Shown: positions 3,737-23,258 of the stretch, one piece after another
Layout of the letters: each line of letters begins with the position of its first letter
How positions within the stretch are numbered: the stretch's first letter is position 1
DNA from: Firmicutes bacterium HGW-Firmicutes-4
Lineage (GTDB): Bacteria; Bacillota; Clostridia; Eubacteriales; Eubacteriaceae
Direction of reading: 5' to 3'
Assembly (NCBI GenBank): GCA_002841405.1
Contig: PGZR01000022.1
Coordinates: forward strand, 684-24,683
DNA: 24,000 nucleotides
The notes under the pieces: model-generated
Databases searched by the model: none
Told to the model about the DNA's origin: nothing
The model's input: only the letters and a program-made list of their open reading frames with translations
Made by a program: the position numbers and the translations under genes

Positions 3737-3866
3737 AAAAACGAACAAGACAAATATTTACTCTTTTTTCTTAATGCGTTTTGACGATCAATAACATGAG
3801 AGTAAGTTAAAAGAAATAAAGATCGCATTAGGCTGAGCAAAAAGAATACAGCCAGTCGATTTAAAG

Positions 3867-4424: not shown

Positions 4425-4444
4425 AGCAAATATGATGCTTACAC

Positions 4445-4489
4445 GAATCGCGAGAAACGCCTTTGCAGGAAGATCTCGCGATTTTTTTA
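4445..4489 (+). terminator. Rho-independent terminator
   Basis: Perfect 10-bp stem AATCGCGAGA (4446-4455)/TCTCGCGATT (4474-4483) running into a T7 tract ending at 4488. Confidence 0.8.
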
Positions 4490-4633
4490 AGCAAAATTAT
4501 AGAACCCCAATCAGAGTCATGATTCGAGGACCGAGTTTGGGGTAGATACTAATAAATGGCAGCATCGTTGGGAATACTAGTGATTTGAATAAATCAGCGC
4601 CGGTCGGTTTGGTATGAATACAAGGTAGATGGG

Positions 4634-8457: not shown

Positions 8458-8498
8458 AGCCAATAAAAAAACACGTTCAACGTGTTTTTTTATTGGCT
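8458..8498. terminator. Bidirectional terminator between convergent genes
   Basis: Perfect 18-bp arms AGCCAATAAAAAAACACG/CGTGTTTTTTTATTGGCT around a TTCAA loop. A/T runs lie on both sides, and the hairpin overlaps the stop of the minus-strand gene. Confidence 0.85.
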
Positions 8499-9342
8499 AT
8501 TTAAATATCATGAAAACAGGTCCGATGCCACCATCGATATCGATTCGATGAGGTGCAGATTTAGATCCGGTTCCGGTTTCCGAAATCTTTTGACCATTAA
8601 TGGTAATCGGGCCGAGACCCTGGTCTGCAGTGATAAAATAATCATCAACATTGGCATTGATGTCCAGACTAGTCTGGCCGACACCACAGTCGATTTCCAG
8701 ATTCCCGGTAACGATCCCCTGAATATTGATCAGACCGACGCCGCCGTTAATTTCAAAATCATTGAGTAGAACATCGGTAAAATGAACCGCGCCGGCACCG
8801 CCGCTGAGTTTACCAGAATTTGCTTGGAGCTGATCGGCCACAATTTCGCCGGCACCCTGTTTGATGGTTAGTTCATCAGCGCTCAAGTGGGACATTTTAG
8901 CGCGACCGGCACCGATCTCAAGTTCCATTTTTTTCAAGATGGCATCTCTGGGAATAGTAACCACAAGGTCAGGCATGTGATCCTTGCCGATCAAATTAGG
9001 CATAATATTGATACTACCTTTATCTTCGATCACAAGTTTGCCATTATCAAGGGTGGCACTTAGACTTTTAGGGATATCAGACCCTTCAACCCGAAAGACA
9101 TTTCCCGTTTGCAGGGTAATATTGCCGGCATTAAAATTAACAAAAACTGAATCCAGTTCGCCGGTGAAATCCTGTTGAAAGTTGTCAGTACCTTGTTCCT
9201 TGATTTGGGTACTGTTTTCAATCAGACCAAAACCTTTCATAATAGCGACGCCGCCATTGACAATGCTGGAAATGATCCCCAATGCCAGCACCAGACCAAA
9301 GGCGATGGCCAGGTATTTAATCCAATTTTGATTGGTATTCAT
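8497..9342 (-). CDS. DUF4097 / LiaG-like beta-helical protein with an N-terminal membrane anchor
   Basis: 281-aa ORF with one N-terminal TM helix. It has repeated G-x-G / GGVG-type short beta-strand repeats (GAGEIV, GGAGAVHF, NGGVGLINI, DCGVGQTSL). Its start overlaps the upstream stop (ATGA at 9339-9342). Confidence 0.8.
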   Translation of the reverse strand: MNTNQNWIKYLAIAFGLVLALGIISSIVNGGVAIMKGFGLIENSTQIKEQGTDNFQQDFTGELDSVFVNFNAGNITLQTGNVFRVEGSDIPKSLSATLDNGKLVIEDKGSINIMPNLIGKDHMPDLVVTIPRDAILKKMELEIGAGRAKMSHLSADELTIKQGAGEIVADQLQANSGKLSGGAGAVHFTDVLLNDFEINGGVGLINIQGIVTGNLEIDCGVGQTSLDINANVDDYFITADQGLGPITINGQKISETGTGSKSAPHRIDIDGGIGPVFMIFK

Positions 9343-10016
9343 TTGACTTCTGTCCCCCCAAAGATATTCGTGCTGTTGATGTAAACAGTCGGTGGATTCT
9401 CGCCTAATGGTCGGTTGGTCTTATTTGAGGCCCCGCCGAAAATCGGCGTGGTGGACATTTCTACCCGAACATTGCTTGGCATCAGCATGTCAACACCGCC
9501 AAAGACTGCAGTGGCGGAGATATAAATGTCTTCATTAATGATGGCCTGGCGTAAATCAAGGGAAACGCTGCCAAAAATCGCAGTCAGGCTGGCACCGTGA
9601 AATTCTTCCCCCGGAAAGTTGATTTCCTGACCACCAAAGACCGCTGAATAATCCGGAAGTCCATCTTTAGTCATGCCCTGAATCAGTTTGGCATTCTTAC
9701 TAAGTCGATCTTTAAACATTATGCTCAAACCGATGGCAATAATAATGATAGGAAAGATTAAATCGCCCAGCAATGCGCCGTTAAAATAGCCTTGGGCGGA
9801 AATAAATAATAAGACCCCAATCCCCAAACCGATGGTATTCCAAAGCTGTAAGCCATTTTGCACCATACTGATGGCACAAGGAATAATGATAAACAAGGTC
9901 CACCAGCCGGCGAAAAATAATTCAAAATTCCACAGGCCAAAGACATTTCCGGCAAATCCAAGACCGATAGCGACCAATAAAAGACCCCATAACAGGTTAC
10001 CAACTCGATTTCTCAT
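9339..10016 (-). CDS. LiaF-like membrane protein (cell-wall-active antibiotic response family, DUF2154 C-terminal domain)
   Basis: 225-aa ORF with AAGGAGAG Shine-Dalgarno. It has four N-terminal TM helices. The C-terminal repeated FGG pattern (AVFGGQEINF, AIFGSVSLDL, AVFGGVDMLMP, PIFGGASNK, NIFGGTEVK) is typical of LiaF. Confidence 0.8.
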   Translation of the reverse strand: MRNRVGNLLWGLLLVAIGLGFAGNVFGLWNFELFFAGWWTLFIIIPCAISMVQNGLQLWNTIGLGIGVLLFISAQGYFNGALLGDLIFPIIIIAIGLSIMFKDRLSKNAKLIQGMTKDGLPDYSAVFGGQEINFPGEEFHGASLTAIFGSVSLDLRQAIINEDIYISATAVFGGVDMLMPSNVRVEMSTTPIFGGASNKTNRPLGENPPTVYINSTNIFGGTEVK

Positions 10017-11040: not shown

Positions 11041-13350
11041 ATGGAACATAAAAAAAGTTTGCTGTCAAGAATACTAGTGACAGTCGTTCTGCCGATGGCG
11101 TTGATATTTTGTGTGACGGCAGGGATTGCAATGACTGTTATTAATCAGAAATTTGATCACTTTGGGGATATTCAAAATATTCTGATACTGATTTTTGCCG
11201 TTGGTTTAGCGGCGTTGGTAGGCATCACTGTCATAGGTGTGAAGGGAACATCGAACCGTTTGACGCAGCTGGTCGAGGCAGCCAAGCGGCTCGCTGATGG
11301 TGAAGCTGAAGTAGTGATTCAAGCAGAAAATCCCCAGGATCAGCTGGGTGAAGTTGCTTACGCACTGTCCGGTATTGCACAGAATATCAGATTTCAGTCA
11401 GAAACGGCTGTGAAATTGGCTAAGGGAGACTTGTCAGCAACAATCATGCCATTATCGGATAAGGACGTGATGGGTAACAGTTTGCTGGAAATCCAGTCGT
11501 CCATTAAAATGGTCAATGATTACCTGATCCAACTGCCTGAACTCATGGAAAAAGAAGAAAATCTCGATAAAAATCTGGAAACAAATATGTCTGGCGACCA
11601 TAAAAAAGGAATACAGCAGGTCAATCAGGCGATCCAAATAGTAGCCGATAAGCGAGATTTCTTTCAGGCAATTCTTGATGCAATGCCATACCGGATTACC
11701 GTTGTCGATACCAATTTGAAATGGACATTTATTAATAAAACCCTTCAGGATCTAAGAATGGCTACCGGTCGTGAAGGAACTCGAGAGTCGATTTACGGTG
11801 ATGATTGTTGTAAATCAAATCTGGAGATCTGTAAGAATGAGGATTGCGGCGTCAAGGCTTACCGAAAAACGGGCCGAATTGAATTTCCTTTTGAATATCG
11901 TGGCGGGCATTATCGCATGGATACGACGCCGATTATCGATAAACAGGGCCAAACTATTGGTTATGTCGAAACTTCGTTTAATACCACTGCGACTATGAGT
12001 GTTAGTAAGTATTCAGAAATAGAGATAAATCGACTGGCTGAAAATTTAAGACGTTTATCTGCTGGAAATCTGGACTTTGACATGGATATTCAGGAACCAG
12101 ATGAGTATACTGGTGAAGTTTACGAACAGTTCAGAGCCATAGAAATAAATCTTCGCGAGGTCAAAAACTCCATTGATAACCTCATCGGTGATGCCATCAT
12201 CCTGACAACCGCGGCCATGCAGGGAGATCTGGATGTTCGGGCAGATGAAGCTAAGTTTAGCGGATCCTGGCAGGAACTAATCGGCGGCATGAATGGCATA
12301 CTTGGTGTCATGGCAAAACCAATGGAAGAGGTTGCCCATGTAATGGATGCCATCGCCAACGGAAACCTTGATGTAACAGTTGATGGTTATTACCAGGGCA
12401 GCTTTGATGTCTTGAAGCAGGCTGTCAATGAAATGGGAAGTAACTTTAAAACTATTGTGACAGAGATTTCGACGGTTACCAGAGAAATAAGCAATGGGAA
12501 CCTCAATTTGGAAAATGTCAGTTCCTTTGGTGGCGATTTCAACGCGATTTCTGACGCACTCAATACTATTATTGCGACATTAAACTCGTTGTTGGGTGAT
12601 ATTAATCATGCCGCTGAGCAGGTTAATGCCGGAGCGAATCAGGTATCTGACAGCAGCCAAGCCCTAGCCCAGGGTTCAACTGAACAGGCCAGCTCGATCC
12701 AGGAACTGACGGCTTCGATTACCGAAATCGCTGACCAGACCAAGAATAACGCCGTCAACGCCAACAAGGCCAGAGAACTGGCTACCGATGTTATGGGTAA
12801 CGCGGACAAAGGAAACCATCAGATGACCGAGATGCAGCAGTCGATGGTGGAAATCAACAAGTCATCGGAAGACATTTCCAAGATTATCAAGGTCATTGAT
12901 GACATTGCCTTCCAGACCAATATTCTGGCGCTTAATGCGGCTGTTGAAGCCGCCCGGGCGGGACAGCATGGTAAAGGTTTTGCCGTGGTGGCAGAAGAAG
13001 TCCGCACCCTGGCCGCTCGAAGTGCTGATGCAGCCAAAGAAACTACCGGCTTAATTGAAGGCTCCATCAACAAGGTGGCAGTCGGGACAAAAATTGCCGA
13101 TGAAACCGCCAGTGCCCTGGACGAAATTGTTGGCGGAATCGCCAAGGTTAATGATTTAATCGGCAACATCGCTACCGCATCAAACGAACAGGCGACCGGC
13201 ATCGCTCAGATTAATATGGGTGTTGAGCAAGTTGCCCAGGTCGTTCAGCAGAATTCGGCAACCGCCGAAGAAAGTGCAGCCGCCAGTGAAGAACTCTCCG
13301 GGCAGTCGATCTTACTAAAACAGATGATCGACCAGTTCCAGCTGAGATAA
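11041..13350 (+). CDS. Methyl-accepting chemotaxis protein: TM hairpin with almost no extracytoplasmic loop, HAMP, Cys-rich PAS, four HAMP-like repeats, MCP signalling domain
   Basis: 769-aa ORF with AGGAGG Shine-Dalgarno at 11030-11035. Two TM helices (aa ~8-34 and ~47-66) are separated by about 12 residues. PAS-like segment at aa ~200-320 with C256, C257, C264 and C269. Repeated GNLDFD / GDLDVR / GNLDVT / GNLNLE units. The canonical signalling-domain core reads IAFQTNILALNAAVEAARAGQHGKGFAVVAEEVRTLA. Confidence 0.93.
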   Translation: MEHKKSLLSRILVTVVLPMALIFCVTAGIAMTVINQKFDHFGDIQNILILIFAVGLAALVGITVIGVKGTSNRLTQLVEAAKRLADGEAEVVIQAENPQDQLGEVAYALSGIAQNIRFQSETAVKLAKGDLSATIMPLSDKDVMGNSLLEIQSSIKMVNDYLIQLPELMEKEENLDKNLETNMSGDHKKGIQQVNQAIQIVADKRDFFQAILDAMPYRITVVDTNLKWTFINKTLQDLRMATGREGTRESIYGDDCCKSNLEICKNEDCGVKAYRKTGRIEFPFEYRGGHYRMDTTPIIDKQGQTIGYVETSFNTTATMSVSKYSEIEINRLAENLRRLSAGNLDFDMDIQEPDEYTGEVYEQFRAIEINLREVKNSIDNLIGDAIILTTAAMQGDLDVRADEAKFSGSWQELIGGMNGILGVMAKPMEEVAHVMDAIANGNLDVTVDGYYQGSFDVLKQAVNEMGSNFKTIVTEISTVTREISNGNLNLENVSSFGGDFNAISDALNTIIATLNSLLGDINHAAEQVNAGANQVSDSSQALAQGSTEQASSIQELTASITEIADQTKNNAVNANKARELATDVMGNADKGNHQMTEMQQSMVEINKSSEDISKIIKVIDDIAFQTNILALNAAVEAARAGQHGKGFAVVAEEVRTLAARSADAAKETTGLIEGSINKVAVGTKIADETASALDEIVGGIAKVNDLIGNIATASNEQATGIAQINMGVEQVAQVVQQNSATAEESAAASEELSGQSILLKQMIDQFQLR

Positions 13351-13375
13351 GTCAAGCAGTCAAAATAAATGATTA

Positions 13376-13409
13376 AAAAGACCACCTTGTCATGAGGTGG
13401 CTTTTTTTA
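13376..13409 (+). terminator. Rho-independent terminator of the MCP gene
   Basis: Stem CCACCT (13383-13388)/AGGTGG (13396-13401) flanked by an A-run and followed by T7. Confidence 0.75.
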
Positions 13410-13423
13410 GAAGGAAGATCACC

Positions 13424-14743
13424 ATGAATCGATTAATTGCGAAACTGATACTTTATACAGAATCAAGCCAGGAGAGCCTGCTAAAGCAGATGGGACAGCT
13501 CTATGAACGTTTTTACAGTGGGCTAGAGTCCAAAGAAGAACTGATTGCCGAAAGCTATCGGCAGATAAAAGCGCTGTTGGAAATAGCCACTGATTTTGGC
13601 TTTGATCGAAATCTCTGGCATCATTACCTGACGTTTTTACTGATAACCAATGAAAATCCATTTAGTTTAACCTGTGAAAAGGTGGGAAAAAAAGAAGGCA
13701 GTGTTAACTATTTTGCCCAAAATGACTGCAAGGTTTTTAAAGAGCTCTTTGATTTTAATTTCACTGAACTGGAATCAGCACTGGGAATTGATTGCTTCAC
13801 CCGGGTTTCAAATTACCAAGCCATCAAAAAACCGGAATTTATGTACAACCAGAATGTCAGTGAAAAGGTGAAATCGCTGAGTCTTAAATTAGCGGAAGCT
13901 GCAAACGCACAAGTATTTTTCGACGAAATCACTCAGTTCTATGGAGAATACGGAGTGGGTATGTTTGGACTGAACAAAGCCTTTCGGATTATTCCCAAAT
14001 CCGATAACACTGGGGTTATCTTTAACCCCATCAATAACATGGATAAGGTTGTGCTGGCGGATCTGGTGGGATACGAAAATCAGAAACAAAAACTGGTCGA
14101 AAATACCAAAGCCTTTGTCGAAGGAAGAAAAGCCAACAATGTCTTGTTGTTTGGCGACAGCGGTACCGGTAAGTCTACCAGTATCAAAGCCATCGTCAAC
14201 GAATTCTATCATCAGGGATTGCGGATGATCGAAATTTATAAACATCAATTTCGGGATTTATCAAATGTCATTGCCCAGATTAAAAACCGCAACTATCGGT
14301 TTATTATCTATATGGACGATCTTTCTTTTGAGGAATTTGAAATTGAATACAAATTTCTGAAAGCGGTTATCGAAGGTGGCGTGGAAACGAAACCGGATAA
14401 CATTTTGATTTACGCCACCTCAAATCGTCGCCATCTGATTCGGGAAACCTGGAATGACCGAAATGATATGGAAGCAAATGGGGACATCCACCGGTCAGAT
14501 ACGATGCAGGAAAAGCTATCGCTGGTCAATCGTTTTGGGGTTAGTATTTTTTACGAACGACCCAGTCAGAAACAGTACTTTGGCATCGTCGCCGAACTGG
14601 CCAGACGGGAAGGCCTGAACATCTCGGAAGAAGTTCTTTCCGGTGAGGCCAATAAATGGGAATTGCAGCATGGCGGAATTTCTGGCCGAACCGCCCAGCA
14701 ATTCATCAATCATTTACTTTCAATCAGTTCTGAGGATAATTGA
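13424..14743 (+). CDS. DUF815-type P-loop (AAA-like) ATPase
   Basis: ORF track starts at GTG 13397, inside the terminator. I prefer the ATG at 13424 (MNRLIAK) with AAGGAAG upstream. Walker A is LLFGDSGTGKST and Walker B-like is FIIYMDDLSFEE. The YATSNRRHLI block matches my recollection of COG2607/DUF815. The N-terminal ~200 aa are unassigned. Confidence 0.8.
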   Translation: MNRLIAKLILYTESSQESLLKQMGQLYERFYSGLESKEELIAESYRQIKALLEIATDFGFDRNLWHHYLTFLLITNENPFSLTCEKVGKKEGSVNYFAQNDCKVFKELFDFNFTELESALGIDCFTRVSNYQAIKKPEFMYNQNVSEKVKSLSLKLAEAANAQVFFDEITQFYGEYGVGMFGLNKAFRIIPKSDNTGVIFNPINNMDKVVLADLVGYENQKQKLVENTKAFVEGRKANNVLLFGDSGTGKSTSIKAIVNEFYHQGLRMIEIYKHQFRDLSNVIAQIKNRNYRFIIYMDDLSFEEFEIEYKFLKAVIEGGVETKPDNILIYATSNRRHLIRETWNDRNDMEANGDIHRSDTMQEKLSLVNRFGVSIFYERPSQKQYFGIVAELARREGLNISEEVLSGEANKWELQHGGISGRTAQQFINHLLSISSEDN

Positions 14744-14788: not shown

Positions 14789-14826
14789 ACACCTGGGACT
14801 AAAATTAGTCTCAGGTGTATTTTTAT
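14789..14826 (+). terminator. Rho-independent terminator
   Basis: 12-bp stem ACACCTGGGACT/AGTCTCAGGTGT with one G-U pair, followed by ATTTTTATT. Confidence 0.8.
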
Positions 14827-14925
14827 TGGCTAAAACTGCGTAAATTTTAGTAAGTTGGATATTAATAAAGTAAAGGGTATCAAGATTAAAAAGATTACAG
14901 ATGAAAATCCATGGCTGGCATATAC

Positions 14926-14939
14926 AAAGCTGCGCAGCT
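14926..14939. repeat. Perfect 14-bp palindrome AAGCTGCGCAGCTT in the upstream region of the beta-CASP gene; possible operator
   Basis: Read directly from the sequence. It lies 53-66 nt upstream of the ATG at 14992 and abuts a TTGAAA hexamer at 14939-14944. Confidence 0.35.
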
Positions 14940-14991
14940 TGAAAAATTTGGACTGATATTAACTGGAAATGAAAAGAACAGGAGAAAGAAA

Positions 14992-16662
14992 ATGAAGATA
15001 AAATTTTTAGGAGCGGCGCTGTCCGTTACCGGTTCCTGCCACCTGGTGACTGCAGATCACAGTAAATTCCTCCTGGACTGCGGTTTATTTCAGGGCAGTG
15101 AAGCCCTGGAAGAATTAAACTATCAGGTGTTTGATTTCAACCCGGCGGAGATAGATTTTGTGATTTTAAGTCATGCTCATGTGGATCATTGCGGGCGCAT
15201 TCCCTTACTTGTCAAGCAGGGGTTCAAAGGAAAGATTTACTGTACCGGGGCAACCGCTGAAATAGCTGACATCATGCTTCAGGACAGTGGCAACATTCAC
15301 GAAATGGATGCGAAGTGGATTAACAAACGTACCACTCGTTCGGGACAGCGGCAGGTTGACCCGCTTTACACCCAGGAAGATGCCGCCCGCTGTGCCCAAT
15401 ATTTTTTTCCGGTGGCATATGGACAAATTTTTGAGATCAATTCTCAGATCAAGATCCGGCTAAATGAAGCCGGTCATATATTAGGGGCAGCAATAGTTGA
15501 GATTTGGGCTCAGGATGGTGGAAAAACCACGAAGCTTGTTTACTCAGGCGATATCGGCGCAAGCAATCAGCGGATGCTTAATGATCCGACCCTGATTGCA
15601 GCGGCTGATTATCTGATTATGGAAACGACCTATGGGGATCGTGCTCATGAAACCCAACAGGAAAGTGGAAAGCGTTTTATGGACATCATTTTTAAAACCG
15701 TTGCTCGGGGCGGCACCGTGGTAGCACCTGCTTTTGCTCTGGGTCGAACCCAGGATTTGATCCATGTGCTGGAAGTGTTTTATGATAACCATGAACTGTA
15801 CCAAAATCAGCTTGATAAAGTAAAAGTTTATGTTGACAGTCCACTGGCTACCGACGCCACCGAAATTTTTCGCAAAAATGCCCATTATTTTAATGACTAT
15901 ATAAAAGAGCGGATCAAAAAAGGTGATGAGCTTTTTTACTTCAGAAATTTGAATTTCACCAAGAGTATTGATCAATCCAAGGCCTTAAATGATAATCCAG
16001 AACCCAAAGTTATTATTTCTTCCAGTGGCATGGCTGATGCTGGCCGGGTTCAACATCATCTCAAGCACTATCTCTGGAAACCAAAATCCAGCATTGTTTT
16101 TGCTGGCTATCAGGCAGAGGGCACCACTGGACGGGCGATAACCAGCGGCGAAAAATATGTCCGGATCCTCCGGGAACGGATTCGTGTGAATGCGGAAATC
16201 TATTTTCTTGAGGGGTTCTCTGCTCATGCTGACAAAAATGATCTGCTCAAATGGCTGTCCGGGTTTAAAGAAAAGCCAAAGAAAATATTTCTGGTTCATG
16301 GGGAAGAAGAACCTAAAAAAATATTTGCTGAAACAGTCAAAAATATTCTCGGGTATGATTGTACAGTCGTGGAAGATGTATCCGAATATGTTCTTGGAGA
16401 AGCTGAAGAAGTTGTTTGTGATGGTATAAAAAGTCAGATTGATGCAAAGAAACAAATGATTCAAATAAAAACCAATTTACAAGATATGTATGATGAGCTG
16501 GACTCACTTTTATCTAAACCAGGTATAAATACAAAAGAAATACTTACACAAGAGAAAATTGAAGATATTTCCAATCTTTCAAATGACCTTGAAAAGATTC
16601 TGACGAAATTTAAATCAGTGGTTGGCGAAGAAGATTTGCAACAAGATGAGAAAACGGTTTGA
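14992..16662 (+). CDS. MBL-fold beta-CASP family hydrolase (COG1236 / RNase J-CPSF-like putative RNA-processing nuclease)
   Basis: ORF track starts at 14911. I prefer the ATG at 14992 (MKIKFLGAA) with GGAGAAAG upstream. Motifs LLDCG, SHAHVDHCG (HxHxDH), EAGHILGAA, YSGDIG, ETTYG and GFSAHAD. An acidic helical tail of roughly 85 aa follows the catalytic core. Confidence 0.88.
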   Translation: MKIKFLGAALSVTGSCHLVTADHSKFLLDCGLFQGSEALEELNYQVFDFNPAEIDFVILSHAHVDHCGRIPLLVKQGFKGKIYCTGATAEIADIMLQDSGNIHEMDAKWINKRTTRSGQRQVDPLYTQEDAARCAQYFFPVAYGQIFEINSQIKIRLNEAGHILGAAIVEIWAQDGGKTTKLVYSGDIGASNQRMLNDPTLIAAADYLIMETTYGDRAHETQQESGKRFMDIIFKTVARGGTVVAPAFALGRTQDLIHVLEVFYDNHELYQNQLDKVKVYVDSPLATDATEIFRKNAHYFNDYIKERIKKGDELFYFRNLNFTKSIDQSKALNDNPEPKVIISSSGMADAGRVQHHLKHYLWKPKSSIVFAGYQAEGTTGRAITSGEKYVRILRERIRVNAEIYFLEGFSAHADKNDLLKWLSGFKEKPKKIFLVHGEEEPKKIFAETVKNILGYDCTVVEDVSEYVLGEAEEVVCDGIKSQIDAKKQMIQIKTNLQDMYDELDSLLSKPGINTKEILTQEKIEDISNLSNDLEKILTKFKSVVGEEDLQQDEKTV

Positions 16663-16721
16663 TAATCGGGTAAAGATCACTTTTGCAAACAAATAATTAA
16701 AAAAAACTCAGGAGGGTTATG

Positions 16722-17522
16722 ATGAAAAAAAAGTATCAGGAAGCAGATGACAAATTAAAGGCTCAAATTCTTGACCAGATACCAGCTCCAGTCATGGCAG
16801 TTAATAAAGAACTGATAGTGATATATATGAATGAGGCTGGCAAAAAATTAATAAAAAGAAGTGCAGAGGATATTATTGGAATTGCCTGCAAAGATATAAT
16901 CTGCACCGATCAGTGTGGAACTGACGATTGTGCCATGCTAAAAGCGATGAAGTCAGGGAAGACCTATGCTTCCCGAACCGAAGCAACCTTAGGTGGACAA
17001 ACGATTCCTTTAGAATTTTCAGCAGTACCTCTCGTTGATGACAGCGGAGAGATCATTGGTGGCCTTGAATTTGTCTTGGACATCACAGAGCGGGTACTAT
17101 ATGAGAATCGGCTCAAAGAACAAAACCATACAATCAGGGAAATGTCTACACCGACAATTAAGTTATGGGAAGGTGTTATGGTTTTGCCGGTTGTCGGTGT
17201 TGTTGACTCAATGAGAGCTCAGCATATGATGGAAAGTATGTTGACAAAAATCGCTGAAACTTATGCAAAAGTAATTATTTTGGATATTCACGGTGTTGCA
17301 GCCGTGGATACGGCTGTAGCGAATCATTTGATTAAAATAACTAAAGCAACTAAACTGATGGGGTGCGATTGTATTCTGTCAGGAATTTCACCTGCCGTGG
17401 CTCAAACAATCATCCAATTAGGGATTGACATGGAAGCGATCAACACCCGGGCAACACTCAGTGATGCTTTGACCGAAGCATTTTTAATGTTGAATCTGGA
17501 AGTGAATAAGAAAAAACAGTGA
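16722..17522 (+). CDS. rsbR: RsbR-like stressosome sensor protein: N-terminal Cys-rich PAS plus C-terminal STAS
   Basis: Tandem ATGs at 16719 and 16722; AGGAGG at 16710-16715 favours 16722. PAS-like aa ~15-125 carries C57-x4-C62-x3-C66-x4-C71 (numbered from 16719). The STAS block STPTIKLWEGVMVLPVVGVVDSMRAQ ... DIHGVAAVDTAVANHL ... LSGISPAVAQTIIQLGID follows the RsbR pattern, including the DT phospho-acceptor position. Confidence 0.85.
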   Translation: MKKKYQEADDKLKAQILDQIPAPVMAVNKELIVIYMNEAGKKLIKRSAEDIIGIACKDIICTDQCGTDDCAMLKAMKSGKTYASRTEATLGGQTIPLEFSAVPLVDDSGEIIGGLEFVLDITERVLYENRLKEQNHTIREMSTPTIKLWEGVMVLPVVGVVDSMRAQHMMESMLTKIAETYAKVIILDIHGVAAVDTAVANHLIKITKATKLMGCDCILSGISPAVAQTIIQLGIDMEAINTRATLSDALTEAFLMLNLEVNKKKQ

Positions 17523-17555
17523 AATAATATTTTTGATGGGAATAGGTTGAAAGTA

Positions 17556-17912
17556 ATGGGAGAAGACTATAATACATCCGTAACCGTGATAAAAAATAAC
17601 CTGATTGTGGCACTTCCAGCAGAAATGACGGATTCGTGTATTCAAAACATTGAAAAAATAATTATTGAGAAAACTTATCAGAAGAATATTCAGGGAGTGC
17701 TTCTTAATTTTTCAATGGTGTCTGTTATGGATACATATACATACCAGGCCTTTGAACACATTACGAGGGTTTTTTCATTGATGGGGATTCAGACAATTTG
17801 GGTAGGTTTAAATCCCGGGGTGATTTTTGGTTTAATTGACTTGGACGTTGCGATTAATACAAAAATAAAAATGGCAATTAATCTTGAGATTGGATTAACA
17901 TTGCTAAATTAG
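17556..17912 (+). CDS. rsbS: RsbS-like single-domain STAS protein (stressosome scaffold / antagonist)
   Basis: About 118 aa from the ATG at 17556; the ORF track uses TTG at 17547. Single STAS domain. VSVMDTYTYQA aligns with the Bacillus RsbS VDMIDSFIAK region, so the phospho-acceptor is Thr rather than Ser. GLNPGVIFGLIDL matches the GIxPxVA helix. Confidence 0.78.
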   Translation: MGEDYNTSVTVIKNNLIVALPAEMTDSCIQNIEKIIIEKTYQKNIQGVLLNFSMVSVMDTYTYQAFEHITRVFSLMGIQTIWVGLNPGVIFGLIDLDVAINTKIKMAINLEIGLTLLN

Positions 17913-17917
17913 AGCAA

Positions 17918-18412
17918 ATGCTAAAACTGGTTAAAATGATGAAAATAGCTGATGTGCGATTAACAAAAGAAATTAGTGATAGAGTTAGGGTTAGAGAAAC
18001 AAAAAAAATAGACCTTGTTTTTAGCCACGATAATGAAAATGTGGTGTATTCTGTTCGTAGTATCGCTAAAAAAGTTGGATTTCGCTTAACGGATGAGGTG
18101 TTAATAGCAGTAGCTGCTTCGGAACTATCGACAAATATCTTGCGGTATGCTGGAAGAGGCATGATAGAAGTAAGTATTGTTACAGATGAAGCTAGCCAGG
18201 TCAATGGGATCGAACTGTTTGCAAGTGACAAAGGACCGGGCATCAATGATATTGAACAGGCACTAAAGGAAAACTACAGCTCACAGGCAAATAGCTTGGG
18301 ACAAGGTCTTCCGAGTGTGCAGCGAATCATGGACGAGTTTTATATCGAATCGGTTTCAGGCAAAGGAACACGAGTGTTGACACGTAAATGGGTGGATTAT
18401 GGAGAAAATTGA
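17918..18412 (+). CDS. rsbT: RsbT-like serine/threonine kinase (GHKL anti-sigma-regulatory-factor family)
   Basis: 164-aa ORF starting 5 nt after rsbS. N-box ASELSTNILRYAG, G1 SDKGPGI, G2 LGQGLPSVQRIMD ... GKGTRV. The N-terminus is about 20 aa longer than I recall for Bacillus RsbT, so the start is uncertain. Confidence 0.85.
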   Translation: MLKLVKMMKIADVRLTKEISDRVRVRETKKIDLVFSHDNENVVYSVRSIAKKVGFRLTDEVLIAVAASELSTNILRYAGRGMIEVSIVTDEASQVNGIELFASDKGPGINDIEQALKENYSSQANSLGQGLPSVQRIMDEFYIESVSGKGTRVLTRKWVDYGEN

Positions 18413-18986
18413 ATATGCAATGATACTCCGAGCACTACTGTGGGATGTTTCAGAATGCGGTGATCTCGGATATATTAGAGAATATGATAATAAGTGCTTT
18501 GTCTGTTTGATTGACATCCTTGGTCATGGCAAAAATGCAAGAAGTATTGCGGTCGAAGCAGAAAAATATCTTGAAGCCAATTATCAACGCAACCTCGTTG
18601 ATATTATGAACGGTCTCCATAAACATTTATATGGTAGTAGAGGTGGAGTTGTCCTAATGTGTCGCCTGGATATACCTGCTGGGAAACTTCAGTATACTGG
18701 AATTGGAAATGTCACTGGAAGAGTAATTGGTTTCAATCAACATCGGATGCTTTCAAAAGATGGAATTGTGGGATTTGGAAGCATTAGTCCAATTATTCGA
18801 GAATGTGATTTTTCTGATCACGATCTTCTGATTCTCTATTCTGATGGTATTAAAGAGCACTTCAATTTGCTTGAACATTTGCCATTATTTACCGGCGACA
18901 CGGAATCAATCGTAAGTGGTGTTCTTAAAGAATTTGGCAAAAAAACTGATGATGCTTGCTGTATAGCGTTAAAGTATATTAAATAA
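18399..18986 (+). CDS. rsbX: RsbX-like PP2C/SpoIIE-family protein phosphatase
   Basis: 195-aa ORF overlapping rsbT by 14 nt. Motifs CGDLGYI, CLIDILGHG, LYSDGI and DDACCIAL are typical of small SpoIIE/PP2C feedback phosphatases. Confidence 0.8.
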   Translation: MEKIEYAMILRALLWDVSECGDLGYIREYDNKCFVCLIDILGHGKNARSIAVEAEKYLEANYQRNLVDIMNGLHKHLYGSRGGVVLMCRLDIPAGKLQYTGIGNVTGRVIGFNQHRMLSKDGIVGFGSISPIIRECDFSDHDLLILYSDGIKEHFNLLEHLPLFTGDTESIVSGVLKEFGKKTDDACCIALKYIK

Positions 18987-19007
18987 AAGCGGAATCGAGG
19001 TAGAACA

Positions 19008-22000
19008 ATGATCGAATTGGGTCATACAAGGGTCGATAGCAATATTTCTTTGATCGAAGCAAGAAAAAAAGCAAGACATGTTGCTTTAAAATTAGGTTGT
19101 TCCGAAATTAAGGCAGCCCGAATTGAAGCGGTTTTATCAGAAATGATTCGGCAGTTGCTTAATGATACAAATACGGTTGACTGCATCGTTTCAGTCATAA
19201 AAAACCAAGATAAAGAAGGAATTAATATCGCATATGATAACCTGGAGGTACCGTTTAGATTGAATTGTGCTGAAAAATATGTAAATCTGTTTGAAATTCA
19301 CGAAAAGCCGGATGGAAAATACTTGGCAAATGTCTTTTTCCCATTCATAACAGTCGAACCAGATTTTTGTGAGACCCTCGTCGAAGAAATTCGTATTGAA
19401 ATTGAGTCACCGACTAGAGCAGAGTTACTCAAAGAAATTGAGGAAAAGAACAAAGAATTGGCGCGCAGCAGAGAGTTTATCGAATCAGTTCTGGAAAATT
19501 TACAGGCTGCAGTTTATGCAAAAGATTTAAATGGAAAATATACATATATTAACAAACAATGGGAAGCGGTAACGGGCATTGATCGGGATTCCTGCATCGG
19601 AAAAACGGCGATGGACATATTCAGACCAGATCTTGGCGAAGCTTATGAAGAAAATGATCTCAATGTTATTAAATCAAAGAAAATTCAGATAATCGAAGAA
19701 CACTCTAATCGGGAAGAAAACACACAAACCTATTTATCCACAAAAGTACCGATGAAACAGAATGATGAGATTATCGGACTCTGTAGTATTTCTACAGATA
19801 TCACTCAACGAAAAACTATGGAAGAAGAGCTGTACAAAGCAAAAAAAAACGCTGAAGAGGCGGCCAAGTCGAAGTCCGAATTTTTGGCAAATATGAGCCA
19901 TGAAATACGAACACCCATGAATGCCATACTGGGAATGAGTTATTTAATGGAGAAAACTGATCTGTCCGAAAAGCAGAAAGACTATCTTGGAAAAATACGG
20001 TTGTCGGGGCAGCATTTGCTGGGTGTTATTAATGATATCCTGGACTTTTCAAAAATTGAGGCAGGGAAACTGGATATAGAATGCATTGATTTTAAATTAT
20101 ATGAGGTTCTGGATAATTTGTCCAACTGTATTAGTGAAAAATGTATGTCAAAAGGTTTGGAACTTGTCTTTGATGTTAATTCGAATGTTCCTAACGAACT
20201 ATGTGGCGATCCGCTGCGAATTGGACAAATCCTGATTAACTATGTCAACAATGCCATAAAATTCACGGAACAAGGAGAAATTATTGTCAGAATAAGGAAA
20301 GAAGAAACATTAGCCCAAGGATTTTTGTTGAAATTTGAAGTTCAGGATACCGGAATCGGGTTAACTACAGATCAGAAATCTAAGTTATTCCAGTCTTTTC
20401 AACAGGCCGATACCTCTACTACACGAAAATACGGTGGAACGGGATTGGGACTGGCTATTTCAAAAGATCTGGCGGAATTAATGGGTGGCGAAGTTGGTGT
20501 GGAATCAGAATATGGTAGAGGCAGTAATTTTTGGTTTACGACCCATTTTCGCGTCTCCGGCAAATCAGAGCAATCAATTATCTCAAATGAAGGTTTGGAA
20601 AATTTACATGTATTGGTAGTCGATGATAATAATCAGGCCCGAATGATCCTATCGGAGATGTTAAACTCCATGAAAATTCGGGTTGATGAAGCAGGTTCTG
20701 GTGTGAGTGCCATCGAAATGGTTCAAATGGAAGATTTGCGGCAAGATCCCTACGAAATTGTTTTCGTTGATATGCAGATGCCTAATTTAAATGGCGTTCA
20801 AACCGTTGAACAATTAAGTCAGATCAAACTGAAAAGCCCACCCAAATATGTGATGGTCACCGCTTTTGGAAGAGAAGAAGTATTTTGTAAAGCGGAACGG
20901 GCGGGATTTGAACTGGTTATGGTCAAACCGGTTAATCTATGGGTACTGTACGAAACGATGATTAGAATTCTTGAAAAAAACCGACTGAAAGATACTGTCG
21001 AAAGAAAAGAAGTGGAGACGGACGGTCAAAGGAAAATTTTACAAGCAATTTCCGGGGCTAGAATTTTGTTGGTGGAAGATAATGAGTTGAACCAGATGGT
21101 TGCACTTGAACTACTTCAAGAAGCCGGACTGATTGTAGATGTGGCAGAAAATGGTCAGATTGCCGTAGAAATGGTGGCTGAAAATGAATATGATCTGGTT
21201 CTGATGGATATGCAGATGCCAGTACTGGATGGGCTTGAAGCGACCAGGCGGATTCGTTCAGATAGCCGATTTACAGAACTGCGAATTATTGCGATGACTG
21301 CCAATGCAATGGCCAGTGATCGCGAACGTTGTATCGCTGCCGGAATGAATGATCATTTACCTAAACCGATTGAGCCGAATCATTTGTTTGAAATACTGGC
21401 GCATTGGATACCGCCAACAACTATTTGCTCAGATGACTGTATCCACGATACTGAGGATGAGATTTATCGAGAAGCGGAATTAAACATCAGAATCAGTGGT
21501 CTGGACGTTGAATTGGGTTTACGGCGGGTTCTCGGTAAGAAAAAATCGTATCTAAATTTACTGAGAAAATTTATTGCCGGACAACCGAGTTTCATTACAG
21601 ATCTGGATCAGGCAGTCAGCAATGGCGATTATACCACCGCTGAAAGGCTTGTACATACATTAAAAGGGGTATCTGGGAATATTGGGGCAATGGAAATAAG
21701 AGAAACGGCAACGATGCTTGAGACCGCAATCCGTGAACAACCAAGTATGGATACATTAAGGCCGCTCATTACAAACCTAGCTATTCAGTTAAAAAAGCTA
21801 ACTGAATCATTAGAAACGGCGTTGCCAAAAGAAAAAAAAGCTGTTGACAACAGTGATACTGTTTCCACGAAGATTGAACTAATACGATTTTTAGAAGAAC
21901 TTATGCCGGGGATTCAAACACGGAAACCAAAAAAATGTCTGGATGTTCTCGAAACTTATCGTAAATTTTTATGGCCAGATGAAATCGAAATCGAAGTCGC

Positions 22001-22088
22001 TGAGATCTATCGACTTGTTTCCAAATATCGATATAAGGAAGCCGCTGAACGCGTAAATTCCTTATTAATCAAATTAAGTGAGGTTTGA
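19008..22088 (+). CDS. Hybrid sensor histidine kinase: unassigned N-terminal domain, coiled coil, PAS, HisKA, HATPase_c, REC, REC, Hpt, helical tail
   Basis: 1026-aa ORF with GAGG Shine-Dalgarno at 18997-19000. H-box SHEIRTPMNAILG (H298), N-box NYVNNAIKFT, G1 DTGIGL, G2 GGTGLGLAIS. REC1 has VVDDN, VFVDMQMP (D588), VTAF and VKPV. REC2 has LVEDN, LVLMDMQMP (D734), MTAN and PKPI. Hpt has VHTLKGVSGNIGA (H883). Confidence 0.93.
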   Translation: MIELGHTRVDSNISLIEARKKARHVALKLGCSEIKAARIEAVLSEMIRQLLNDTNTVDCIVSVIKNQDKEGINIAYDNLEVPFRLNCAEKYVNLFEIHEKPDGKYLANVFFPFITVEPDFCETLVEEIRIEIESPTRAELLKEIEEKNKELARSREFIESVLENLQAAVYAKDLNGKYTYINKQWEAVTGIDRDSCIGKTAMDIFRPDLGEAYEENDLNVIKSKKIQIIEEHSNREENTQTYLSTKVPMKQNDEIIGLCSISTDITQRKTMEEELYKAKKNAEEAAKSKSEFLANMSHEIRTPMNAILGMSYLMEKTDLSEKQKDYLGKIRLSGQHLLGVINDILDFSKIEAGKLDIECIDFKLYEVLDNLSNCISEKCMSKGLELVFDVNSNVPNELCGDPLRIGQILINYVNNAIKFTEQGEIIVRIRKEETLAQGFLLKFEVQDTGIGLTTDQKSKLFQSFQQADTSTTRKYGGTGLGLAISKDLAELMGGEVGVESEYGRGSNFWFTTHFRVSGKSEQSIISNEGLENLHVLVVDDNNQARMILSEMLNSMKIRVDEAGSGVSAIEMVQMEDLRQDPYEIVFVDMQMPNLNGVQTVEQLSQIKLKSPPKYVMVTAFGREEVFCKAERAGFELVMVKPVNLWVLYETMIRILEKNRLKDTVERKEVETDGQRKILQAISGARILLVEDNELNQMVALELLQEAGLIVDVAENGQIAVEMVAENEYDLVLMDMQMPVLDGLEATRRIRSDSRFTELRIIAMTANAMASDRERCIAAGMNDHLPKPIEPNHLFEILAHWIPPTTICSDDCIHDTEDEIYREAELNIRISGLDVELGLRRVLGKKKSYLNLLRKFIAGQPSFITDLDQAVSNGDYTTAERLVHTLKGVSGNIGAMEIRETATMLETAIREQPSMDTLRPLITNLAIQLKKLTESLETALPKEKKAVDNSDTVSTKIELIRFLEELMPGIQTRKPKKCLDVLETYRKFLWPDEIEIEVAEIYRLVSKYRYKEAAERVNSLLIKLSEV

Positions 22089-22090
22089 TT

Positions 22091-23206
22091 ATGAAGAAAT
22101 TGTCAGAGTGTAATATTCTAATCGTCGATGATACAGAAATGAATATTGACATATTAGTTGGTGCACTGGGAGATGACTACGAACTGTCAGTGGCAATGGA
22201 TGGGGAAGCTGCTCTCGAAATGATGGAAATCGAGCTTCCCGATTTAATCTTACTGGACATCATGATGCCAGGATTGAGTGGCTACGAAGTCTGTGAAAAA
22301 CTTAAAAAGAATCCTACAGCGAAAGAGATCCCAATTATTTTCCTGACAGCGATGACTGACATCGAAAGCAAAACAAAAGGGTTTGAGGCTGGGGCCGTTG
22401 ATTATATTACCAAACCATTTGAAATACTGGAAGTAAAAGCACGGGTGCAGACCCATCTGTATATCACGACTGCAAAAAAAGAGTTAGCTCTGCAGAATGA
22501 AATACTTGAGCAACGGGTTATTGAACGAACTGAAGAACTGTGTCTGACTCAGGAAATTACCATTGAAGCGCTAGCCTCACTGGCTGAATATCGAGATCCA
22601 GATACGGGGGGGCATATTTATCGTACAAAAAATTATGTAAAAATTTTGGCTGAAAAACTAAGCTCCTTTGAAAAATATAAAAATATTCTGAATGAGGAAG
22701 TTATCAAAATATTTTACAATTCGGCACCTCTCCATGACATTGGCAAAATCGGTATTCGCGACGAAATTCTTTTAAAGCCAGGTAAGTTGACCGTTAAAGA
22801 ATTTGAAGAAATGAAAAAACATACGCTGATTGGTTATAATGCTCTTAGAATTGCGTCACTAAAGCTTGGTGAGAATTCATTTTTAAAACATGCCATGGAG
22901 ATTTCAAAAAGCCATCAGGAAAAATGGAATGGGACCGGGTATCCGGATGGTCTGTCTGGCGATGATATCCCCATAGCTGGGAGAATCATGGCAATTGCAG
23001 ATGTGTATGATGCACTCATCAGTAAGCGGATTTATAAACCGCCATTTACGCACCGGCAGGCGGTAGCGATTATTAAAGAAGGCCGGGGTATTCATTTTGA
23101 TCCGCTGATGGTTGATGCTTTTGAAGATGTTAATGAAGAATTCCGGCAGATTGCGATTAAATATGCCGATTGTGATGAGGAACGAGTGACATTAAATCAA
23201 GTGTAG
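22091..23206 (+). CDS. RpfG-type response regulator: REC plus HD-GYP c-di-GMP phosphodiesterase domain
   Basis: ATG at 22091 with GAGG at 22080-22083; the ORF track uses TTG at 22085, which overlaps the kinase stop. REC has IVDDTE, LILLDIMMPG (D56), LTAM and TKPF. HD-GYP has LHDIGKIGI, KKHTLIGY, SHQEKWNGTGYPDGL and IADVYDAL. Confidence 0.92.
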   Translation: MKKLSECNILIVDDTEMNIDILVGALGDDYELSVAMDGEAALEMMEIELPDLILLDIMMPGLSGYEVCEKLKKNPTAKEIPIIFLTAMTDIESKTKGFEAGAVDYITKPFEILEVKARVQTHLYITTAKKELALQNEILEQRVIERTEELCLTQEITIEALASLAEYRDPDTGGHIYRTKNYVKILAEKLSSFEKYKNILNEEVIKIFYNSAPLHDIGKIGIRDEILLKPGKLTVKEFEEMKKHTLIGYNALRIASLKLGENSFLKHAMEISKSHQEKWNGTGYPDGLSGDDIPIAGRIMAIADVYDALISKRIYKPPFTHRQAVAIIKEGRGIHFDPLMVDAFEDVNEEFRQIAIKYADCDEERVTLNQV

Positions 23207-23211
23207 CGTTG

Positions 23212-23258
23212 CTATCTAAAAGACCTGCCGGCTTGACGCCGACAGGTCTTTTAGATAG
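23212..23258 (+). terminator. Long hairpin terminator closing the signalling operon
   Basis: 20-bp arms CTATCTAAAAGACCTGCCGG/CCGACAGGTCTTTTAGATAG with one mismatch and a 7-nt loop. The T-run (TCTTTT) lies inside the 3' arm. Confidence 0.7.

Follow-up and report, generated by a model that had tools for sequence, protein, structure and literature searches.

A six-gene stressosome and phosphorelay locus

We analysed a run of six genes on the forward strand (16719-23206) of a 24-kb stretch of DNA from Firmicutes bacterium HGW-Firmicutes-4 (contig PGZR01000022.1), the whole of which we call the window; coordinates are window positions unless the number of another locus (L) is given. In the list of open reading frames (ORFs) the run comprises rsbR, rsbS, rsbT, rsbX, a hybrid kinase gene and the gene of a response regulator with REC and HD-GYP domains. 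The locus is a Clostridial, PAS-sensing member of the known Vibrio-type arrangement, in which an RsbR-RsbS-RsbT-RsbX (RSTX) module stands with a two-component system and a predicted cyclic di-GMP (c-di-GMP) phosphodiesterase; because this wiring is already known from Vibrio, the operon alone is no discovery. The new element is the N-terminal domain of the kinase (amino acids (aa) 1-135, hereafter N-dom), which by profile comparison and predicted fold is a homologue of RsbT and which is probably the domain that couples the stressosome to the kinase. The features of the locus, with alternative starts after the slash and matches from Pfam-A (2025 copy), are as follows.

16719/16722-17522, + strand: rsbR; co-antagonist and sensor with PAS domain (aa 18-126; PAS_4, 1.8e-17) and STAS domain (aa 150-250; 3.4e-16)
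17547/17556-17912, + strand: rsbS; lone STAS domain (STAS, 1.1e-07), scaffold and antagonist; likely start ATG 17556
17918-18412, + strand: rsbT; GHKL Ser/Thr switch kinase (HATPase_c_2, 1.8e-09)
18399-18986, + strand: rsbX; single-domain PP2C feedback phosphatase (SpoIIE, 2.3e-06, weak at 28 bits)
19008-22088, + strand: hybrid kinase gene
19008-19412, + strand: N-dom, aa 1-135; putative RsbT-derived pseudokinase and proposed stressosome-coupling domain
19416-19475, + strand: conserved linker helix, aa 137-156, consensus PSREELMxEIxxKNxEL; joins N-dom to PAS and to the dimerization and histidine phosphotransfer domain (DHp)
19491-19814, + strand: kinase PAS domain, aa 162-269 (PAS_4, 3.7e-17)
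19869-20546, + strand: kinase core; HisKA, aa 288-353 (5.2e-21), and HATPase_c, aa 400-513 (7.8e-27)
20619-21398, + strand: receivers; REC1, about aa 538-655 (boundaries approximate), and REC2, aa 686-797 (Response_reg, 2.3e-48, in two stretches)
21558-21806, + strand: Hpt domain, aa 851-933 (Hpt, 9.3e-13), with H883 in HTLKG
22085/22091-23206, + strand: REC-HD-GYP regulator gene (Response_reg, 1.7e-26; HD_5, 2.8e-27; HD, 1e-14)
23212-23258, no strand assigned: intrinsic terminator

The coordinates and gaps reproduced the six same-strand genes with tiny junctions described in an earlier, sequence-only reading of this DNA. The gap between rsbR and rsbS is 24 nucleotides (nt; 33 to the alternative ATG) and that between rsbS and rsbT 5 nt, rsbT and rsbX overlap by 14 nt, 21 nt separate rsbX from the kinase gene, and the regulator gene either overlaps the kinase gene by 4 nt or follows it at +2 nt if it begins at ATG 22091, which has the better ribosome-binding site of its two starts. 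The hairpin that the same reading placed at the end of the run is also there: a long inverted repeat with a folding free energy (dG) of -34.9 kcal/mol (RNAfold), whose core lies at 23230-23248 in the terminator scan. Since an A-tract precedes and a U-tract (UUUU) follows the core stem, the terminator is potentially bidirectional.

Profile searches of Pfam and NCBIfam (2026), together with motifs, bore out the domain calls for all six products and the identity of the first four as RsbR, RsbS, RsbT and RsbX, which stand in the R-S-T-X order of an RsbRSTX module and carry its features. The linker-STAS part of RsbR scored 100 bits against the NCBIfam YtvA_fam model, under the family cut-off. Its phospho-acceptor motifs are VDT198 and AQT230, in which T198 and T230, invariant in seven orthologues, are by motif what we take to be the equivalents of B. 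subtilis T171 and T205; the entire STAS domain, both motifs included, is extremely conserved in the orthologue alignment. RsbS, for which the 118-aa form is the gene call used in metagenomes, has Thr in its VMDTYTY motif where B. subtilis has Ser59 (seven-orthologue alignment), and the MDT position deviates in two of the seven, being Ala-Ser in L009 and Pro in L010. In RsbT the N-box (SELSTN), G1 (DKGPGI) and G2 (LGQGLP) are intact in the orthologue alignment, and the NCBIfam spIIAB and RsbW models both matched under their cut-offs. The PP2C metal-binding motifs of RsbX, namely GD, DxxGHG (DILGHG), SDG and DD (DDA), are conserved in seven orthologues. By analogy with known stressosomes, RsbR and RsbS would assemble into a pseudo-icosahedral complex that sequesters RsbT.

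The PAS domain of RsbR contains a Cys triad, C57/C66/C71 (16887-16931; C-x8-[H]C-x-T-x2-C), which is found unchanged in each of the 22 PAS-type RsbR proteins compared (from Clostridia, Desulfobacterota, Victivallales and Proteobacteria); Cys216 and Cys218 of the STAS domain are likewise invariant. The triad is a candidate site for a metal, Fe-S or redox cofactor and as such a clue to the input signal. It hints at the sensing of redox state, metal or gas, which would have its counterpart in Vibrio, where a haem RsbR senses O2.

The kinase is a cytoplasmic hybrid enzyme with the order N-dom-PAS-HisKA-HATPase_c-REC-REC-Hpt. H298 lies within the H-box SHEIRTP, D588 of REC1 in FVDMQMP and D734 of REC2 in LMDMQMP, so that the H-box His, the HATPase_c domain, the receiver Asp residues and the Hpt His of a hybrid kinase are all present in canonical form. 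Every phospho-site predicted in the sequence-only reading (H298, D588, D734, H883 and, counted from ATG 22091, D56 of the regulator) was found in a canonical motif, and Pfam confirmed the domain order of a phosphorelay ending in REC-HD-GYP. Two features were absent from that reading, the kinase PAS domain (aa 162-269), which is a possible second signal input, and the conserved, Pfam-less N-terminal domain (aa 1-135).

The regulator scored 158 bits against the NCBIfam model for NosR-family response-regulator c-di-GMP phosphodiesterases, under the family cut-off, as were all NCBIfam equivalog scores of the kinase and the regulator. It has D56, the HD pair at 216-217, H245, GYP at 285-287 and the D of ADVYDAL; its HHE motif reads HQE (22901-22912; aa 275-276 from the TTG start), with Gln for the second His, a canonical metal-ligand position that is H or Q among orthologues. 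The 4-nt overlap and the conservation of the pair in Clostridia suggest that the kinase transfers phosphoryl groups to the adjacent regulator, and the intact motifs and gene adjacency point to a relay from H298 through D588/D734 and H883 to D56, which would control the HD-GYP domain.

RsbT proteins identical to that of the window occur on metagenome contigs only, with the gene order of the window. The closest genome is a metagenome-assembled genome (MAG) labelled Acetobacterium woodii, with aa identities of 88% for RsbR, 88% for the regulator and 71% for the kinase. Conservation of the gene neighbourhood in Clostridia, which the sequence-only reading had put forward for checking, held: the same six genes stand in the same order in all four relatives looked up (kinase identities 71, 47, 46 and 45%), and a genome scan added more Clostridia MAGs and isolates, Limiplasma, Anaerovoracaceae, Velocimicrobium and Marinisporobacter among them. 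The genes flanking the cassette in those four relatives are unrelated, giving four different contexts. As the cassette recurs with unrelated flanks, it is a self-contained conserved module, and its arrangement is far beyond chance.

Some relatives depart from this layout. In Acetobacterium paludosum (L031) and A. tundrae (L033), rsbR-rsbS-rsbT is followed after a gap of ~140 nt by the N-dom kinase gene, with no rsbX gene, and the feedback phosphatase has thus been lost from these modules; the complete kinase of L031 has 921 aa and one receiver domain, and the L033 copy runs past the end of the locus. In Eubacteriaceae bacterium ES2 (complete genome; L027, 2910-7103) the kinase is divided between two genes, one for N-dom-PAS-HisKA-HATPase (500 aa) and one for REC-REC-Hpt (480 aa), followed by the REC-HD-GYP regulator gene; the relay is thus naturally split in a strain that is in culture. 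In L003, a metagenome copy of the window locus, a methyl-accepting chemotaxis protein gene (3126-5433) and the kinase gene (11091-14163) are each called as two ORFs, which reflects either pseudogenisation within that population or an error, be it a frameshift or one of assembly.

An RsbT-like domain at the N terminus of the kinase

The first 151 residues of the kinase matched no Pfam family at E<=1, RsbU_N included, and no NCBIfam family. A BLAST search for kinase relatives nevertheless revealed a conserved domain, always from residue 1, in 47 of the 120 relatives listed, PAS-less kinases included. Using phmmer against 1.84 billion representatives we found 34 proteins with N-dom, nearly all matching at residue 1, and according to Pfam the domain is fused in this set to plain and hybrid HisKA kinases, to class III nucleotidyl cyclases and to a PAS-V4R protein. 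M1, L4, G5, R19, K21, L29, R38, E40, S44 and R48 of N-dom are nearly invariant, as are E139, L140, E143, K147, N148 and L151 of the linker helix, which the structural model also shows as a helix from 137 to 156.

An AlphaFold2 model of N-dom built from 30 sequences (pLDDT 86, pTM 0.76) has an alpha/beta, GHKL-like fold, with a predicted order of one strand, two helices, four strands and a helix, followed by the linker helix. When the model was compared with the PDB by Foldseek, the top 17 matches were SpoIIAB, RsbW and UsfX, all GHKL serine kinases with STAS binding partners, at a probability of 1.00 and a target-normalised TM of at most 0.78. The sequence-only reading had stated that nothing resembling RsbU, RsbV, RsbW or a sigma factor occurs in the window. 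Indeed, none of these four is encoded there, and no RsbU/RsbV/RsbW/SigB set was found in the cassette neighbourhoods of the relatives looked up, so that in neither place is there a sigma-B partner-switching output; 'nothing resembling RsbW', however, does not hold, as N-dom has an RsbT/RsbW/SpoIIAB-type fold.

Profile comparison points to the same relatives. With one profile made from 85 N-domains and another from 58 RsbT proteins of the same loci, hhalign aligned N-dom residues 6-115 to RsbT residues 30-161 with 97.1% probability (E 5.4e-11), covering the whole GHKL domain, and the controls, N-dom against RsbS and against RsbX, each gave less than 1%. Hidden Markov models (HMMs) of RsbT and N-dom matched weakly both ways, and RsbA_anti_sig, a GHKL anti-sigma family, gave a sub-threshold match in two of five diverse N-domains. 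On the evidence of profile and model, therefore, N-dom is homologous to RsbT and has a SpoIIAB/RsbW-like fold. In the hhalign register the column of the N-box Asn varies among N-domains, and N-dom has deletions where RsbT carries its G1 box, ATP lid and G2 box; because these ATP-binding motifs are lost, N-dom would be an RsbT-derived pseudokinase, not a catalytic member of the family. We infer that N-dom arose as a second copy of RsbT and gave up the elements for binding ATP. R19 was considered as the counterpart of the alpha-1 Arg conserved in SpoIIAB/RsbT but dropped, since the hhalign register puts that Arg at R23.

Other searches returned nothing from N-dom. There was no tblastn match in plasmids, a profile search of PDB sequences gave noise only, and a word-indexed protein search found nothing with either the domain alone or its profile. 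We did not find N-dom in the searchable literature, subscription reviews being outside reach, and structure-based resources such as Gene3D may tag its fold already.

N-dom accompanies stressosome genes across phyla

To survey genomes we used a degenerate DNA pattern made from the invariant N-dom columns alone (~42 bits), which matches 46 of the 76 known N-domains, and applied it to one genome for each GTDB species. This yielded 93 loci, 92 of them with an N-dom HMM match. By the taxon labels of the records, N-dom loci span ~18 phylum-level groups, including Clostridia, Gamma- and Alphaproteobacteria, Myxococcota, Desulfobacterota and Cyanobacteria, as well as Planctomycetota, Acidobacteriota, Dehalococcoidia, Nitrospinota, Victivallales and Elusimicrobia.

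HMMs made from the cassette proteins served to class the upstream gene wherever at least 300 nt lay before the N-dom gene, which held for 87 genes. In 81 of these the directly upstream gene is a stressosome gene: rsbX or an RsbT-RsbX fusion in 66, rsbT in seven and an RsbS-like STAS gene in eight. Two of the remainder have a cassette nearby and four have none. As the pattern carries no information on neighbours, the search did not favour such an association. Nearly all N-dom loci have RsbT.

The enzymes that N-dom heads are varied. Pfam identified kinases of the HisKA-HATPase type, in which PAS, REC and Hpt domains may be present or absent, cyclases, a GGDEF protein, and PP2C, PAS-PP2C and PP2C-HATPase_c_2 proteins, and RsbU_N is absent from all N-dom output proteins checked with Pfam. 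N-dom therefore takes the place of RsbU_N in RsbU-like phosphatases, kinases and cyclases. Two metagenomic genes for N-dom class III cyclases (L011, L012) also stand behind RSTX cassettes; each is followed by a gene for a 133-aa hemerythrin (L011 4288-4689, L012 7329-7730), which hints at a link to O2 or iron in this sub-type. A REC-HD-GYP gene directly downstream of the N-dom gene is almost confined to Clostridia loci.

Two kinds of variant cluster bear on how N-dom might be used. In L095 (1-7998) the order is PAS-PAS-STAS, STAS, RsbT, HATPase_c_2-PP2C, PAS-STAS, REC-PAS, STAS and an N-dom kinase of ~706 aa, followed by a REC protein, and similar double clusters occur in L018, L026, L049, L089, L097, L102 and L104. 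Start and stop codons in L095 overlap alike at the junction of the first STAS gene with rsbT and at that of the second with the N-dom gene, so that the N-dom gene holds after the second STAS gene the place that rsbT has after the first. The other kind comprises fusions of RsbT to RsbX (HATPase_c_2-PP2C) in Acidobacteriota, Alphaproteobacteria, Myxococcota (Myxococcales) and Gemmatimonadota. Those of 370-412 aa, directly upstream of N-dom, are:

L015 674-1783, - strand: RsbT-RsbX fusion
L044 1566-2675, + strand: RsbT-RsbX fusion
L051 5376-6572, - strand: RsbT-RsbX fusion
L096 1260-2495, - strand: RsbT-RsbX fusion

The fusion in L043 (Gemmatimonadota) is shorter, at 305 aa, with a truncated RsbT part.

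Many proteobacterial and myxococcal loci (L016, L017, L028, L060, L073, L079, L086, L090, L101 and similar) differ from the co-linear R-S-T-X order in having a divergent RsbR-like gene (~380-570 aa, C-terminal STAS) on the strand opposite to rsbS-rsbT-rsbX-N-dom. N-dom kinase and stressosome genes are also found on two archaea-binned contigs, L058 (labelled Woesearchaeota) and L106 (a MAG labelled Thermoplasmatota), through either horizontal transfer or binning contamination.

Comparison with known systems

The V. vulnificus locus VvRsbR-S-T-X-VvD1-VvD2 encodes, behind its stressosome genes, a ~1060-aa sensor kinase with a PAS domain (VvD1) and a predicted c-di-GMP phosphodiesterase (VvD2) (PMC9237108, PMC10014275), in a bacterium without sigma-B (PMC9237108, PMC10014275, PMC3360785). 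According to the later Vibrio papers, a locus of this type was first noted by Pane-Farre et al. 2005 (PMC9237108, PMC10014275, PMC10436020). Its six genes are co-transcribed, as seen by reverse-transcription PCR (PMC10436020), and have the same expression kinetics; Northern blots and proteomics are part of the published work, the structure of the stressosome was obtained by cryo-EM, and one RsbR together with RsbS suffices for its assembly (PMC9237108). Deletions of RSTX and of D1 have similar motility and fleQ phenotypes (PMC10014275). The sequence-only reading, which took the wiring to be biochemically uncharacterised, was right in that neither phosphotransfer nor phosphodiesterase activity has been shown biochemically, but novelty of the wiring itself is not supported, as the Vibrio locus was noted in 2005 and studied in 2022-2023.

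The window locus shares with that of V. vulnificus the R-S-T-X order, followed in the same orientation by a large PAS sensor kinase and a response regulator predicted to degrade c-di-GMP, the absence of sigma-B (here within the window) and an output kinase without RsbU_N, and is on these features of the Vibrio type; the likeness to VvD1 and VvD2 rests on published text descriptions of their domains, not on sequences. It differs in that VvRsbR senses through a haem globin whereas RsbR here would do so through a PAS domain with an invariant Cys triad, and in its host, a Gram-positive anaerobe (Eubacteriaceae), not a gamma-proteobacterium. RsbU_N was the sole RsbT-docking module known on phosphatases, cyclases and kinases in a 2025 eLife study, which set out a mechanism for RsbT, RsbU_N and the linker and proposed that it is exchangeable between effectors (PMC12143880). 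Most stressosome-linked outputs, the Vibrio kinase included, lack RsbU_N, and how they are coupled was stated to be open (PMC9237108).

With the B. subtilis system (RsbRA-RsbS-RsbT-RsbU-RsbV-RsbW-SigB-RsbX) the locus has in common the STAS core, the RsbT GHKL kinase, the RsbX PP2C feedback and the phospho-acceptor motifs of RsbR and RsbS. It differs in that it has no RsbU, RsbV, RsbW or sigma-B in the window, rsbX comes straight after rsbT, the output is a phosphorelay to HD-GYP, and the coupling domain is not the four-helix RsbU_N. The MtR-MtS-MtT-MtX-MtG locus of Moorella thermoacetica is likewise a Clostridial stressosome in RSTX order with a c-di-GMP output and no sigma factor, and regulation of a GGDEF cyclase by the Moorella stressosome is attributed to Quin et al. 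2012 (cited in PMC4976288 and PMC12143880). There the output is a single RsbU_N-GAF-GGDEF cyclase under MtT, whereas the present locus has as output a hybrid kinase and a predicted REC-HD-GYP phosphodiesterase, with a putative RsbT-like pseudokinase as adaptor; the kinase is not one of the RsbU_N-coupled outputs (RsbU, MtG and the proteobacterial NreB-like kinases; PF08673).

N-dom shares the fold of the GHKL kinases SpoIIAB, RsbW and RsbT (PDB 1L0O, 1TH8, 6M36, 8IH8) and profile homology with RsbT, but lacks their N-box Asn, G1 box, ATP lid and G2 box, and is placed at the N terminus of signalling enzymes and followed by a signalling helix; it belongs with GHKL proteins by fold and homology, not by ATP-binding motifs. 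Like BarA, TorS and ArcB, the hybrid kinase has a HisKA-HATPase-REC-Hpt relay with all its phospho-sites, but it is soluble, with no membrane or periplasmic sensor, and has two receivers. The regulator has the REC-HD-GYP architecture and the HD and GYP motifs of RpfG-type regulators, apart from HQE in place of HHE.

How the stressosome may reach the kinase

We consider it rather likely that the locus, from an Acetobacterium-like Clostridium, is an RSTX stressosome module of the Vibrio type which N-dom of the kinase connects to c-di-GMP turnover. By analogy with Bacillus, Moorella and Vibrio, RsbR and RsbS would form the STAS core; a signal at the PAS domain of RsbR would change the RsbT-dependent phosphorylation of the RsbS Thr and of RsbR T198/T230, and RsbX would erase the marks that RsbT writes. 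The state of the core would reach the kinase through N-dom, from where the conserved helix would carry it on to PAS and DHp. In the mechanism that we favour, N-dom, keeping an ancestral STAS-binding ability of RsbT, would dock directly on the STAS proteins (RsbS or RsbR) and read their RsbT/RsbX-set phosphorylation as a partner switch. The event at N-dom would then change autophosphorylation at H298, and phosphoryl groups would pass to D588 and/or D734, H883 and D56, controlling hydrolysis of c-di-GMP by HD-GYP. That stress would lower c-di-GMP, as the sequence-only reading proposed, is not readable from sequence; the Vibrio phenotypes (PMC10014275) are compatible with a module that promotes c-di-GMP degradation.

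Direct reading of the STAS proteins is a tentative choice, to which we give slightly less than an even chance. It gains from the eight loci in which an RsbS-like gene, not rsbT, directly precedes the N-dom kinase gene, L095 with its overlapping codons among them, and the RsbT-RsbX fusions hint at a role of RsbT as writer with its eraser, which they suit better than that of a released activator. Further support comes from V. vulnificus, where an interaction between VvRsbT and VvD1 was not detected, although the same assay missed RsbT-RsbS and RsbT-RsbR as well (PMC9237108). In a mirror-tree comparison of 45 loci the correlations (r) were 0.76 for N-dom/RsbS, 0.71 for N-dom/RsbT and 0.73 for RsbT/RsbS, which puts N-dom in the co-evolving set. 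Several observations count against our explanation, either in its docking step or more widely. The mirror-tree values do not separate RsbS from RsbT as the partner. The ATP lid that N-dom has lost is, as we take from the SpoIIAB:SpoIIAA structures, part of the surface by which SpoIIAB-type kinases contact STAS proteins, and its deletion weakens the case for direct docking. No cassette lies near four of the N-dom genes (L042, L052, L068, L077), one N-dom-like protein with PAS and V4R domains (P0131) has a context other than a stressosome, and HQE in place of HHE makes the level of HD-GYP activity uncertain. P0131, a weak match outside stressosome context, was set aside as a stressosome-linked N-dom.

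The same features can be read in the manner of RsbU, with N-dom as a functional substitute for RsbU_N and stress-released RsbT binding N-dom, for example as a GHKL pseudo-homodimer, rigidifying the linker helix and switching the kinase on or off. We rate this only a little below direct reading, though as less likely than not. N-dom occupies exactly the position of RsbU_N across PP2C, kinase, cyclase and GGDEF outputs, with a conserved helical linker next to it, nearly all its loci have RsbT, and its co-variation with RsbT is about as strong as that of RsbS; moreover, the published mechanism with its proposed exchangeability (PMC12143880) gives a model, with RsbT-RsbU and the MtT-Moorella cyclase as precedents. 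On the other hand, N-dom has no similarity to the four-helix RsbU_N, so RsbT would need a different binding mode, and the RsbS-like genes before N-dom in eight loci, the fusion of RsbT to RsbX in several phyla and the undetected VvRsbT-VvD1 binding, with the limit of that assay given above, all run counter to a released RsbT. A transient phosphorylation of VvD1 by VvRsbT was offered as a guess that would explain the negative interaction data (PMC9237108), and RsbT could in the same way phosphorylate a Ser or Thr of the kinase, possibly within N-dom, with no stable complex. The catalytically intact motifs of RsbT and the occurrence of Ser14 in 51 and Ser44 in 65 of 76 N-domains would allow it, but Ser44 corresponds in the alignment to a structural Ser, that of the SEL motif in the RsbT N-box, which makes its conservation inherited and no sign of a phospho-site, N-dom has nothing like the STAS phospho-acceptor loop, and a whole conserved fold exceeds the needs of a phospho-acceptor; we think such coupling very unlikely.

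That the stressosome and the kinase are not directly coupled at all, the operon serving co-expression, the kinase and regulator sensing through the kinase PAS domain and N-dom acting in dimerisation or as some other sensor domain, seems to us extremely improbable. The kinase does own a PAS domain, and orphan N-dom kinases exist (L052, L068, L077). Against this stand the nature of N-dom as an RsbT paralogue, the stressosome genes that adjoin it in 81 of 87 loci from ~18 phylum-level groups with any output, PAS-less kinases included, and the similar phenotypes of the Vibrio RSTX and D1 deletions (PMC10014275). A separate alternative concerns the core: RsbR, RsbS and RsbT could work as a small, soluble partner switch with no megadalton icosahedral stressosome. 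Assembly is not readable from sequence, the window has one RsbR paralogue, and the Pfam scores of RsbS and RsbX are modest. However, a single RsbR with RsbS is enough for the V. vulnificus stressosome (PMC9237108), the RsbR STAS domain is extremely conserved with both phospho-Thr motifs, and R-S-T-X is the canonical module order, and we judge a small switch unlikely.

Flanking genes and other features of the window

Upstream of the six genes lie:

16663-16718, + strand: region between the beta-CASP gene and rsbR; ribosome-binding site AGGAGGG
14911-16662, + strand: gene of a beta-CASP/RMMBL metallo-beta-lactamase (RNase J/CPSF-like), ending 56 nt before rsbR

In the intergenic region, whose folding dG is just -5.2 kcal/mol, the promoter and terminator scan detected neither a terminator hairpin nor a match to a sigma-70-like promoter; the nearest terminator lies upstream of the beta-CASP gene (14789-14818), with none between that gene and rsbR. 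In this lineage transcription may therefore come in from the beta-CASP gene, and co-transcription of that gene with the stressosome genes is possible. We rejected it as a seventh member of the operon and place it outside the module, because only in the nearest Acetobacterium relatives (L007, L020) is it linked to the cassette.

Enzymes of c-di-GMP turnover are unusually frequent in the window. Besides the REC-HD-GYP regulator it encodes a GGDEF-EAL protein (185-2683) and a 760-aa PAS-PAS-GGDEF protein with a C-terminal HD-GYP domain (HD_5; 4634-6916, + strand), which has cyclase and phosphodiesterase domains in one chain. An overlapping gene pair on the - strand (8497-10016) encodes a LiaF-like membrane protein and a DUF4097 'toastrack' protein; it resembles a cell-envelope stress module and has no relation to the stressosome operon.

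Significance of N-dom

N-dom is a concrete candidate for the missing link between stressosomes and outputs that lack RsbU_N. It may be more than a feature of this locus: we tentatively propose, at somewhat under even confidence, that N-dom is an uncatalogued family of RsbT-derived pseudokinases that serves as a general adaptor between RSTX modules and their outputs where RsbU_N is absent, and that reads STAS phosphorylation. The domain, which is fused to four classes of output enzyme, gives a marker by which genomes can be searched for stressosome outputs, and invariant residues to mutate. Cultured hosts for experiments are at hand in A. paludosum, A. tundrae, Eubacteriaceae ES2 and Thalassospira alkalitolerans, and further in Marinobacter caseinilyticus, Luminiphilus and Amazonocrinis. 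If true, a general N-dom adaptor would explain how stressosomes that lack RsbU-type targets pass on their signal, a question raised by the Vibrio work.

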